The position numbers were made by a program. This document shows, in pieces, positions 3,001 to 6,000 of a DNA stretch of 8,034 bases. Source of the stretch: a virus (taxonomy: Duplodnaviria; Heunggongvirae; Uroviricota; Caudoviricetes); the IMG/VR virus record IMGVR_UViG_2703718789_000001, positions 1-8,034 of that record, one strand, 5' to 3'. The number at the start of each line of letters is the position of its first letter. Within the stretch, counting starts at the first letter, position 1.

Positions 3001-6000
3001 TTGGCAACATCCGTTCCATAAAGATGCGCCAATAGCTCGGTGGTTATGACAGGGATCTGGTTGTGGGTAATCGGGGAAAGAGTTTCAACTGCGATTTTGG
3101 TGGCCATAAGATGATCCTTTTTCTTTGTGAATCATCACCACCTGCGACGCCAATCGCTTGGTGGTGAACTGTGCAGGGTTGGCGTAACCGGGAAAAAGGA
3201 ACCGGCGCGGATTGCTCCGCCCCCACACAGCCCACCATTGAGATGTGACTGTGCAAACGACAATAAAAAAGACGCTGGCGCGTCTGTTGTCGCCTTTTTC
3301 ATCCGGGACGCCAATCCCGACGCCAGATTTTGCTGGCGTGTGAGGAATATAGCCCCGGATAAATCATCGCGTCAATCCCCTTGTATTCCTCGCACGATGT
3401 CTTAGCCACCGGATATCCCACAGGTGAGCCGTGTAGTTGAAGGTTTTTACGTCAGATTATTTTGGGATTGGCTTGCGTTTATTTCTGGAGCGTTTCGTTG
3501 GAAGGTATTTGCAGTTTTCGCAGATGATGTCGGTGATACTTCGTCGCGTCATTCCTCTTGCCTACGTTTCACATCCCGGTACTCACAATCATCTGGAATC
3601 GTCAGCCGCATCCCCTTCCGATGCGCCCACTGGTCAATGTCTGTCAGATATTTATGCATTTCCCCGATATCAAGCTGGCGCGTTGATTTAACGCATCGCG
3701 TAATATTAAAAATCGTCACCTTTTTTACCGGACAAAATATATCTTTTAGCCACTCATGAACCTCTTCAGGCGTGAAGTTTTCAGCAGAAACAGCAGATAA
3801 CTGTGCGGCTATTTCTGTATTCCACATCCACAGAAGACTGTTTTGTGACAATGTACGCTTCTCACGGTACTCAGATATTTTTATGCGCCAGCGTTTTCCG
3901 GTTTTAATTATTTCTTTAAGGATTTCCCAGAATTGTGATTTATTAGTTTCGTGCAGAATAAAATCATTCATCATCAGTCATCAAAATCGAGTTGTTGGAT
4001 AATTCTGTTGCGCTGAAACTCATTGTTGAGTCTGAACAACCGTCGAAGAACACGGTCACGCGGATAGCGCCGTGCGGCAGGTGAATGCTCATACAACTCA
4101 TCAAGCGGCAAACTGGACGATGAACGATACCGATACCAACGCACCAACTCTTCACGAAAATTAGCCCTGACAAGCTCAGCTATCGTACTCATTTCTTAAA
4201 GCCTCCAATCCCTCTCCCCCAAATAAAAAGGCCTGCGATTACCAGCAGGCCTGTTACAAGCTCAGTGATGTAGATGGTCATTGCTTCATCTCCCCTTCCA
4301 TTTCATCAATGTCAACGTCATCAGGAAGATGGGAACAATACGCTGCTATACCATGATGATTTATCTCATACCCTTTGAACGTTACCATCTGGCGCGTAAT
4401 CTCAACTTCGTTCAGGAATCCGCCATCGCATAACTGCCTGGCTATTTTCGATTTGGTCTGGATTATTGGTAGTGCCTGTTCTTTCAAAGCGTATGATATT
4501 TGTGCATCCCATGCCTTTTCGAGAATGGCTAATTGTTTTTTATTCATTTAATACTCCGTCACGTTTTCCTGTCGCCACGCCTCGTCATATTCCGATTTCG
4601 GCATATTGGCGATGTAGCTATATGGCGATCCTGATTCAAGTTGCAGGAACTGGTGCGATTGCTCGTCAAGGAACAACGGGACACCACCTTCCCAACCTTC
4701 GCCGTTACGTTGTTTTTCAAGCATCAAAACAGATGCCGGAGATGCCAGTAGCTGTTCGTCCTTCTCTGACATCTTTTCACCACTCTGAACTCTCTGTAAC
4801 GCTCTCTCGCGAGCCTTGTTACGCCAGATGATGAAAAGGTTGTCTGTCAGGTCTGTTATCGCTCCAGAGCCTTTTACGTCCATTTTCCCGGTTGGTTTTT
4901 CTTCGCTGTCTCCTTTTCGCGAGTGAGTAACGAGAATGACGTGGGAGTTTGTTTTGTTTTTGAAGTCGCAAATCGAGTCAACAAACGCCTTCTGCCCGTT
5001 ATAGTCATCGTCGCCTATGCCACATTTCATCAGGCTGTCGATGATGAATAACTGGATCCCGTATCGGCGGCGAGCGTAGTCGAATATTTCGATCAGCCTG
5101 TCGGCTTTCGCCGTTCCGGTCAGGCCAAACACCCAAAGTCTTTCGTCATAAAATTTAAATGCAGAGTCAATTTCCAGCAATGGAGGCATCTTGCAACACG
5201 TTGCCTGACGGGTAAGGCGCTTAAGGAGAATACCAGGCTTCAGCTCAAGTGACGCGATGCACGTCTTCACACCCTGACGCATTGCCTCAAGTGCCATATG
5301 CCCGACAACCTCGGTGTTATGCGTCGCCACATATCCCCTGGTTACATACAGGTGGCGAGGGTGATCGACCATAATACACAAGCATTCTGCATTGCCGATT
5401 TTTTCAACATTCCTGACGAATACCCCACAGCCCTCGAATCGATGCGCAGTTAATCTGCCATTGAGTCGTGGTGAACGGATGGCCTCCCTGATTTCTCTTG
5501 TCAGTCTGATTCTTGCCTCGTATGAATCCATCCCATGCCGCTTATCGTCCTTGTATGTGTATGTCACGCCAGTTTTAACTCGCGTCCGGCATGACCCGCC
5601 GAGTGAGTTAACCAGTTGAACAACCCCATTGCGCAGTTCTTCACTTGCTGAGGAAAAAACAAGCGTTCCATCCTTCTCGACATACCCATCCGTTTCAAGC
5701 AGACCACACAGCATGCCTATACGCGTTGATTTATTTGCGGAAAAAAACACACGAGGGATGAATTTGTTTTTTGCTGTGCACCCCATTAGTCCATAACCTC
5801 GCAGGGTCTCCATGAGTGGATTTGCCTGACCACGCGCCGTTGATATCAGCCAGTCCTTACCATCTCCAGAGAAGTTGTAATCAGGCAGTTCAGCCTTCAT
5901 ACGCTCGATCATGTATGGCTCGACGTTTGAAAACTTCACGCTCCCATTGCTAAGACTACCATCCCCGAGAAGGGAGCCGATAACCCATGCTAATGGCTCT

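Follow-up and report, generated by a model that had tools for sequence, protein, structure and literature searches.

In bacteriophage lambda, the replication genes are separated from the nin genes by the terminator tR2, which halts unmodified RNA polymerase and is passed by polymerase modified by N. tR2 and the short gene ninA have reportedly been described since the work of Kroger and Hobom in 1982. Here we analyse a stretch of 8,034 nucleotides (nt) of a tailed phage (the window; positions 1 to 8,034 of IMG/VR virus record IMGVR_UViG_2703718789_000001, Caudoviricetes), in which a 30-codon open reading frame (ORF) on the minus strand contains a hairpin and T-tract within its coding sequence. 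An earlier sequence-only reading had presented this ORF as an unannotated gene for a small transmembrane-type peptide whose codons double as a terminator. The ORF and its hairpin are a rediscovery of the textbook lambda tR2 and of the named, uncharacterised gene ninA, and we are confident that together they constitute the already known ninA–tR2 cassette of lambdoid phages, a module of ~72 nt at the junction of the replication and nin regions that combines a terminator with a chained, very probably translated ORF.

In lambda, a distance of 30 bp separates the NinA AUG from tR2, and one of 16 bp separates tR2 from the NinA stop codon; in vivo the terminator reaches efficiencies of up to ~0.9 as long as ribosomes are not nearby (Li et al. 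2015, PMC4824070, who cite Kroger & Hobom 1982 and the lambda ribosome profiling of Liu et al. 2013 for NinA). In the reporter constructs of these authors, inclusion of the NinA start halved the expression of the upstream reporter, mutation of the ribosome-binding site or of the AUG restored it, a result that indicates both an active start and non-stop transcripts, and the initiation site was described as 'not weak'. A ribosome within ~27 nt of the hairpin represses tR2, and a terminator placed deep inside a coding region loses ~60% of its efficiency. Translation of NinA itself cuts tR2 efficiency by only ~10%, since within the first 100 nt a ribosome has little chance of reaching RNA polymerase. 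In the lambda construct, a transcript that ends at tR2 is non-stop with respect to NinA and can be expected to set off trans-translation (PMC4824070). In vitro, termination at lambda tR2 is 53%.

The genes of nin regions, among which ninA is listed in lambda and P22, have been described as a 'chain of interlinked genes' joined by ATGA overlaps, and the region including ninA is dispensable (lambda nin5 deletion; a P22 ninA–ninH deletion lysogen is in use). Two other kinds of described system resemble the element. The leader-peptide attenuators of trp, his and pyrBI also carry a short translated ORF and an intrinsic terminator on one RNA, where the position of the ribosome can affect the hairpin. 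The boundary sequences of lambdoid phages, such as bsq6 of Sf6, are short conserved linkers between unrelated modules, as is the case here.

Identity of the hairpin and the ORF

The lambda sequence between ren and ninB reads ATGACCATCTACATTACTGAGCTAATAACAGGCCTGCTGGTAATCGCAGGCCTTTTTATTTGGGGGAGAGGGAAGTCATGA. Comparison of window positions 4281..4210 with lambda 40,567–40,638 revealed only three differences, all of them in codons 5–9. The hairpin (lambda 40,596–40,619), the loop, the T-tract and the GGGGGAGAGGG block that follows are identical in the two sequences, and the tR2 oligonucleotide 'TR2-cut' (aacaggcctgctggtaatcgcaggcctttttattg) of Li et al. (2015) has the same sequence as the element of the window. 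The terminator thus shares hairpin, loop, U-tract, orientation and place between the replication and nin genes with lambda tR2, without any difference in the terminator itself; it is the neighbours that differ, a DUF7301 gene standing where lambda has ninB and an 89-residue gene standing where lambda has ren. The same nesting is marked in existing records. The GenBank record of Nil2 places a 'tR2 terminator' within the 'ninA' coding sequence, and that of Sf6 places a 'terminator; homology to phage lambda tR2' within gene 45 ('similar to phage 21 NinA') and labels the core 'bsq6; boundary sequence'. ninA is annotated at the homologous place in P22 and phi24B, and it is also annotated in HK630.

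The exact 30-residue peptide is deposited as NinA of phi24B (ADN68419.1; UniProt G3CFJ7), and the ORF matches PHROG 5907 over residues 1–26 (E = 1.4e-17). The first 24 residues are the same as in NinA of lambda, P22, phage 21, phi24B and HK630, with one I/V difference from lambda. The tail reads IGGFKK in the 30-residue peptide of the window and KS in the 26-residue peptide of lambda, because the mosaic junction falls after the GGGGGAGAGGG block. As in the other members of the NinA family, the start of the ORF overlaps or abuts the upstream stop codon and the frame closes at the start of the next gene, such that a short ORF bridges the last gene of the replication region and the first gene of the nin region. 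Neither Pfam nor NCBIfam has a model matching the 30-residue peptide, Rfam has no family at the ninA/tR2 place, and a full-text literature search for the peptide string returned no match. In E. coli records annotated with the Prokaryotic Genome Annotation Pipeline (PGAP), including a complete genome with an identical stretch of 701 nt, ninA is never called. This explains why the ORF had appeared unannotated, a description that is true of PGAP/RefSeq records only, given that the exact peptide is deposited under the name NinA.

The hairpin is a G+C-rich stem-loop followed directly by a U-tract on the transcribed strand, both within codons 10–21 of the ORF, and it is the top-ranked terminator-like site of the window. 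The isolated 37-nt element folds with an energy of −15.7 kcal/mol (z = −3.6), and none of 200 shuffled sequences was equally stable. On the opposite strand the hairpin is present without a T-tract, and tR2 is therefore expected to be unidirectional, acting along the direction of the genes. The window genes on the minus strand form a lambdoid prophage stretch that runs from replication to nin, in the order primase/helicase, 89-residue gene, ninA/tR2, DUF7301 gene and NinB through to NinG, which corresponds to the position and orientation of tR2. The sequence-only reading had described a perfect 7-bp stem of G–C pairs followed by a T-tract, at the place where lambda has tR2. The stem-loop and the T-tract were borne out, the stem comprises 8 bp of which six are G–C pairs, and the place was right, except that the sequence is lambda tR2 itself. 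Its assignment of the hairpin as a terminator is supported by this identity and by the in vivo efficiency of lambda tR2.

Probable translation of ninA between unrelated neighbours

A 30-codon ORF is by itself not above chance, as 40 ORFs of at least 25 residues lie within 2.5 kb. The ORF is meaningful because of its exact fit between two genes and because of comparative evidence, not because of its length. The ATGA stop/start overlaps that the sequence-only reading had placed at both ends are both present (Table 1), and the GGGGAG that precedes the ninA ATG forms a duplex with the anti-Shine-Dalgarno sequence of −8.3 kcal/mol, within the top 1.1% of the background.

Related loci were collected from IMG/VR in searches anchored on the hairpins, which are unbiased toward the ORF and yielded 117 lambda-type and 108 HK97-type loci (~225 in total). 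A peptide-pattern search enforces the peptide and thereby biases counts of synonymous and non-synonymous changes, and the hairpin-anchored loci were used instead. Across these loci the ~72-nt core is flanked by at least seven unrelated upstream genes (Ren, a DnaB-like helicase, a gp12-like helicase, a primase/helicase and three small proteins) and by at least 14 different downstream genes. A Shine-Dalgarno-like stretch lies 6–9 nt before the ninA ATG in all seven upstream contexts; the anti-Shine-Dalgarno duplex energies range from −5.9 to −11.6 kcal/mol and rank in the top 0.1–6.4% of the background, whose mean is −1.6. Seven independent sites of this kind are hard to explain unless initiation at the ninA ATG has been selected. 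At the other end, the stop codon of ninA falls within −23 to +10 nt of the following start in junctions with at least 14 different downstream genes, stop and start being arranged as ATGA, GTGA, TAAATG or overlaps of 8 or 14 nt. These results add comparative evidence to the reporter measurements in lambda and suggest that the ninA ORF is very probably translated, as the sequence-only reading had argued from the two overlaps.

The ORF is matched at 2,870 places in 1,972 of the 5,426 complete E. coli genomes (36%), with up to five places per genome, and most of these matches end at nt 70–73. ninA, which PGAP/RefSeq systematically omits at ~2,900 places in complete E. coli genomes, is one of the most widespread uncharacterised phage micro-ORFs. 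Small-protein datasets from E. coli K-12 are of no help, since the ninA core does not follow renD in its DLP12 prophage.

A working model of the element can be put together from these data and from lambda. tR2 of the window would act as the intrinsic terminator of the early rightward (pR) operon and stop polymerase that lacks the N modification, a role that is established in lambda and adopted here by analogy. Efficient transcription of the nin genes and Q would therefore depend on the prior action of N, whose gene is located outside the window. Ribosomes would start at the ninA ATG where it overlaps or abuts the upstream stop codon, cross the terminator on antiterminated transcripts and stop at the next start. 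Such chaining would leave no untranslated gap and would couple the downstream gene translationally. tR2-terminated transcripts would lack the ninA stop codon, and ribosomes on them would be non-stop, as shown for a lambda construct, and rescued by trans-translation. Residues 10–24 of the peptide are largely set by signals that are not coding in origin, the stem giving G-L...A-G, the T-tract L-F-I and the purine block W-G-R-G.

Variation of the core among related loci

The ~72-nt core is a short conserved block with unrelated alternative modules on both sides, as expected of a mosaic boundary sequence. In contrast to other boundary sequences, it also holds a terminator and a probably translated ORF, and its conservation therefore need not reflect the targeting of recombination.

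A second version of the element is found in HK97, whose gp56 shares the first ten codons and the place of ninA and likewise carries a terminator-like hairpin and T-tract in frame. It differs in the stem-loop, GGGGCTA..TAGCCC plus T6, which is read as GAIYTVALFYW; the product is less hydrophobic and its tail overlaps gp60 by 14 nt. The HK97-type hairpins vary at one stem pair in a series from T-A through T.G to C-G, which keeps the pairing and shows selection on the RNA structure. Many NCBI records carry the 32-residue NinA homologue of the HK97 gp56 type under the name 'histone H1', apparently a spurious name that has been propagated.

A third version is free of a hairpin after codon 10, where an AT-rich sequence (MTIYITELIAGLSLLMVLTVYIIKYILYANKKTN) is followed by a gene for a 203-residue endonuclease with HNH_3 and AP2 domains. 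The stop codon of the endonuclease gene lies 1 nt before a lambda-type tR2 hairpin (locus L013, 6334–7055; also L091 and L120), an arrangement present in 5 of the 117 lambda-type loci. Judged from these junctions, a putative homing-endonuclease cassette is inserted exactly between codon 10 of ninA and the tR2 stem. The split ninA has acquired a new hydrophobic tail, and the resulting 34-residue peptide occurs on at least 1000 contigs, including an HK022 entry. The conserved ninA core may be the homing site of this HNH_3+AP2 endonuclease.

The C-terminal tails exist in more than 12 versions, and insertions or deletions in the T-tract join the ORF to the gene that follows it (HF4s, L134), alter its tail or truncate the ORF. 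In phage HF4s (L144, 736–1197), the T-tract is 1 nt shorter and the ninA-like frame is fused to a gp60 homologue; the single coding sequence of 153 residues in this record, which overlaps the helicase gene, is probably an annotation artefact of the frameshift.

A search anchored on NinB recovered ~30 loci with a more distant NinB (69–77% identity and lower) in which the 900 nt upstream lack both the ninA core and a strict terminator, and under its strict criteria (perfect stems) an ORF spanning a terminator did not recur independently of the sequence. A contig scan with a back-translated seven-residue pattern, which is too degenerate, returned mostly chance matches and no new divergent homologues.

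Alternative readings of the ORF and the peptide

Several observations weigh against the view that the cassette consists of a terminator and a chained, translated ORF whose peptide is a by-product. Conservation of the ORF relative to the hairpin, the check proposed by the sequence-only reading, gave a mixed result. The ORF is intact in ~95% of relatives, but the DNA identity of the core is at least 95% and neutrality predicts as much intactness at that level, which makes this weak evidence. The hairpin is retained in one nonsense variant and in one lineage of five loci with a frameshift. In the HNH-cassette variant the hairpin stands outside the ninA frame, so translation through the hairpin is not obligatory. 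Codons 1–10 exhibit extreme conservation at the DNA level that the terminator alone does not explain. The upstream stop codon here lies ~26 nt before the stem, at the ~27-nt threshold of Li et al., and, as a speculation, this distance could explain the invariant length of the first ten codons. The coupling role of ninA is one that we infer. Finally, the hydrophobicity of all three versions of the sequence after codon 10 hints at selection on the peptide, which is left unexplained if the peptide is a by-product.

This last point leads to the possibility that NinA is a functional single-pass membrane micropeptide and that the terminator is accommodated in the segment encoding its transmembrane part (true dual coding), a reading that we take seriously but consider unlikely. 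The single hydrophobic helix noted in the sequence-only reading holds up in terms of hydropathy, with best 19-residue Kyte–Doolittle means of 2.03 in the window, 2.04 in lambda and 2.19 in the cassette variant (usual threshold 1.6), and basic residues come after the hydrophobic stretch. Much of the helix is nonetheless forced by other signals. The stem, the T-tract and the purine block, which in lambda is the ribosome-binding site of ninB, alone predict G-L..A-G-L-F-I-W-G-R-G, and residues 10–24 therefore need no explanation at the protein level; HK97 gp56 is borderline at 1.52. The lambda hairpin, the HK97 hairpin and the AT-rich sequence of the HNH cassette are all read as uncharged, hydrophobic residues, only 2.4% of stop-free shuffles are as hydrophobic as the hairpin-free tail, and for both types of hairpin neither of the two unused frames is at once free of stops and hydrophobic, unlike the frame used. 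In codons 2–10 of the lambda-type set, eight synonymous changes stand against three conservative replacements where ~26% synonymous changes are expected (binomial p ~0.0015). When the HK97-type set is added, however, the distinct variants amount to 9 synonymous and 14 non-synonymous (p = 0.12); this count includes five differences that arise artefactually from a single frameshift allele, and without them the ratio is roughly 9 : 9–10, with mostly conservative replacements. Against a function stand also the freely varying tails, the T-tract changes that fuse or truncate the ORF, the dispensability of the nin region and the fact that the literature found reports no ninA phenotype. On this evidence we regard an independent function of the NinA peptide as doubtful. 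In a bolder version, NinA would be a selected membrane micropeptide in the prophages of more than one-third of E. coli genomes, and its transmembrane codons would co-evolve with the terminator. Since transcripts ended at tR2 lack the ninA stop codon, transfer-messenger RNA (tmRNA) would in addition be an inherent control on early-operon mRNA until N acts. Hints of this version are the three unrelated sequences after codon 10, all hydrophobic and one of them free of a hairpin, and the hydrophobic tail that the homing-endonuclease cassette gives to the split ninA; it is somewhat more doubtful again. If NinA does have a membrane function of its own, it would illustrate cleanly, in a natural setting, how one set of nucleotides can serve both a protein segment and a terminator.

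Three other readings give the hairpin, the core or the peptide a different role. The sequence-only reading had suggested that the terminator acts as an attenuator on translationally coupled genes. A ribosome on ninA, or one ending the upstream gene ~26 nt before the stem, would in that case block the hairpin, so that tR2 efficiency reports how tightly translation follows transcription. This is improbable. The repression by nearby ribosomes and the loss of efficiency deep in coding sequence described by Li et al. are compatible with it, as is the position of the upstream stop codon, but silencing of NinA translation changed tR2 efficiency by only ~10% in lambda, the known control of tR2 is N antitermination, and no local element of the ORF other than the terminator hairpin is stable. 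A classical leader-peptide attenuator was rejected, as the fold of the 93-nt ORF RNA contains no alternative antiterminator structure (whole-ORF z = −0.55). The element also differs from the attenuators of trp, his and pyrBI in that ninA spans the terminator rather than preceding it, contains no run of regulatory codons and has a small measured effect. Less probable still is that the ORF is fortuitous and untranslated and that its conservation reflects the terminator together with a recombination boundary sequence homogenised among co-resident prophages. The DNA of the core is conserved (at least 95%) between junctions that are mosaic at either end, the Sf6 record calls it a boundary sequence, the intactness of the ORF is not clearly above the neutral expectation at such low divergence and PGAP does not call it. 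Nevertheless, Shine-Dalgarno-like sites have been kept independently in seven unrelated upstream genes, at least 14 junctions place the stop codon at the start that follows, and the NinA start is active in lambda (PMC4824070). The proposal that the peptide is a toxic or host-takeover factor, either type I toxin-like or Kil-like, found no support, and we judge it extremely improbable. What speaks for it is a general resemblance, the peptide being short, hydrophobic and phage-encoded. Against it, ninA lies inside a translationally chained operon without a promoter of its own or a nearby antisense promoter, the core is present at up to five places per E. coli genome in over a third of complete genomes, the nin region including ninA can be deleted in lambda (nin5) and P22 (ninA–ninH), and the literature searched contains no report of ninA toxicity. 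The type I toxin-like form was rejected on the grounds that there is no promoter-like site on either strand near 4189–4320 and no Rfam antisense family there.

Gene order and neighbouring features

The positions of the genes and signals around ninA/tR2 are given in Table 1.

Table 1 Genes and sequence signals around ninA/tR2, in window positions and in the direction of the genes
Feature	Positions	Strand	Remarks
Toprim primase/helicase gene, 968 aa	7454..4548	minus	First in order
89-aa gene, phrog_2239	4278..4547	minus	No assigned function; directly upstream of ninA
Shine-Dalgarno-like GGGGAG	4290..4295	minus	8 nt before ninA ATG, within end of 89-aa gene
ATGA overlap	4278..4281	minus	ninA ATG (4281-4279) / TGA of 89-aa gene (4280-4278)
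ninA ORF, 30 codons, MTIYITELVTGLLVIAGLFIWGRGIGGFKK	4189..4281	minus	PHROG 5907; exact sequence named NinA in GenBank/UniProt
ninA/tR2 conserved core, ~72 nt	4210..4281	minus	Mosaic 'boundary sequence'; similarity to other prophages usually stops here
tR2 stem-loop, AGGCCTGC / tggtaatc / GCAGGCCT	4229..4252	minus	8-bp stem, 6 G-C pairs, 8-nt loop; encodes T10-L18
tR2 T-tract, TTTTATTT (U-tract in RNA)	4221..4228	minus	Expected RNA 3' ends ~30 nt before ninA stop
Purine block, GGGGGAGAGGG	4210..4220	minus	Encodes W-G-R-G; lambda counterpart 6 nt before ninB ATG
Shine-Dalgarno-like GGAGG	4202..4206	minus	9 nt before ATG of DUF7301 gene, within ninA tail
ATGA overlap	4189..4192	minus	ATG of DUF7301 gene (4192-4190) / ninA TGA (4191-4189)
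DUF7301 gene (PF23975), 72 aa	3974..4192	minus	Directly downstream of ninA
NinB gene	3549..3974	minus	Followed by two antirepressor genes and NinG

An intein-like insert with Hint and LAGLIDADG domains occupies approximately residues 379–760 of the 968-residue toprim primase/helicase, between its primase and helicase (AAA_25) parts. Downstream of NinB, PGAP annotation of a record with an identical neighbouring stretch gives a NinE-family gene with an internal stop at ~3364–3552 (minus), and in the window this region contains only a 31-codon ORF (3457–3552). Window positions 3157–3352 (minus) match the Rfam families of isrK (78.6 bits), C4 antisense RNA (74.3 bits) and its a1/b1 targets (50.1 bits), all above the gathering score. 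These matches lie directly upstream of the Ant antirepressor gene (2433–3107) and correspond to an antisense control module like immI of P1/P7 within the nin region; a terminator-like hairpin (3285..3270) lies inside the module. Another strong hairpin of the terminator type, AAACCCAGC-ttcg-GCTGGGTTT plus TTTATTG, is located at 2395–2416 (minus) and directly follows the Ant gene along the operon. NZ_CP169023, the one complete E. coli genome with a 100% match to window positions 3900–4600, is not collinear with the window at 1795–2433; between the genes for the KilAC antirepressor and Ant, the two sequences differ by ~560 bp.

Contigs identical to lambda ren–ninA–ninB were present in assemblies of unrelated species, many of them at ~1x coverage and one with a length of 48,442 bp (loci L150, L181, L186, L188, L192, L201, L205, L209, L214, L219 and others). 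The species include Pseudomonas sp. 30_B, Oceanobacillus profundus, Bradyrhizobium frederickii, Psychrobacter cibarius, Pseudoxanthomonas, Shewanella canadensis and Nocardioides marinquilinus, and these contigs probably represent lambda DNA contamination or spike-in.

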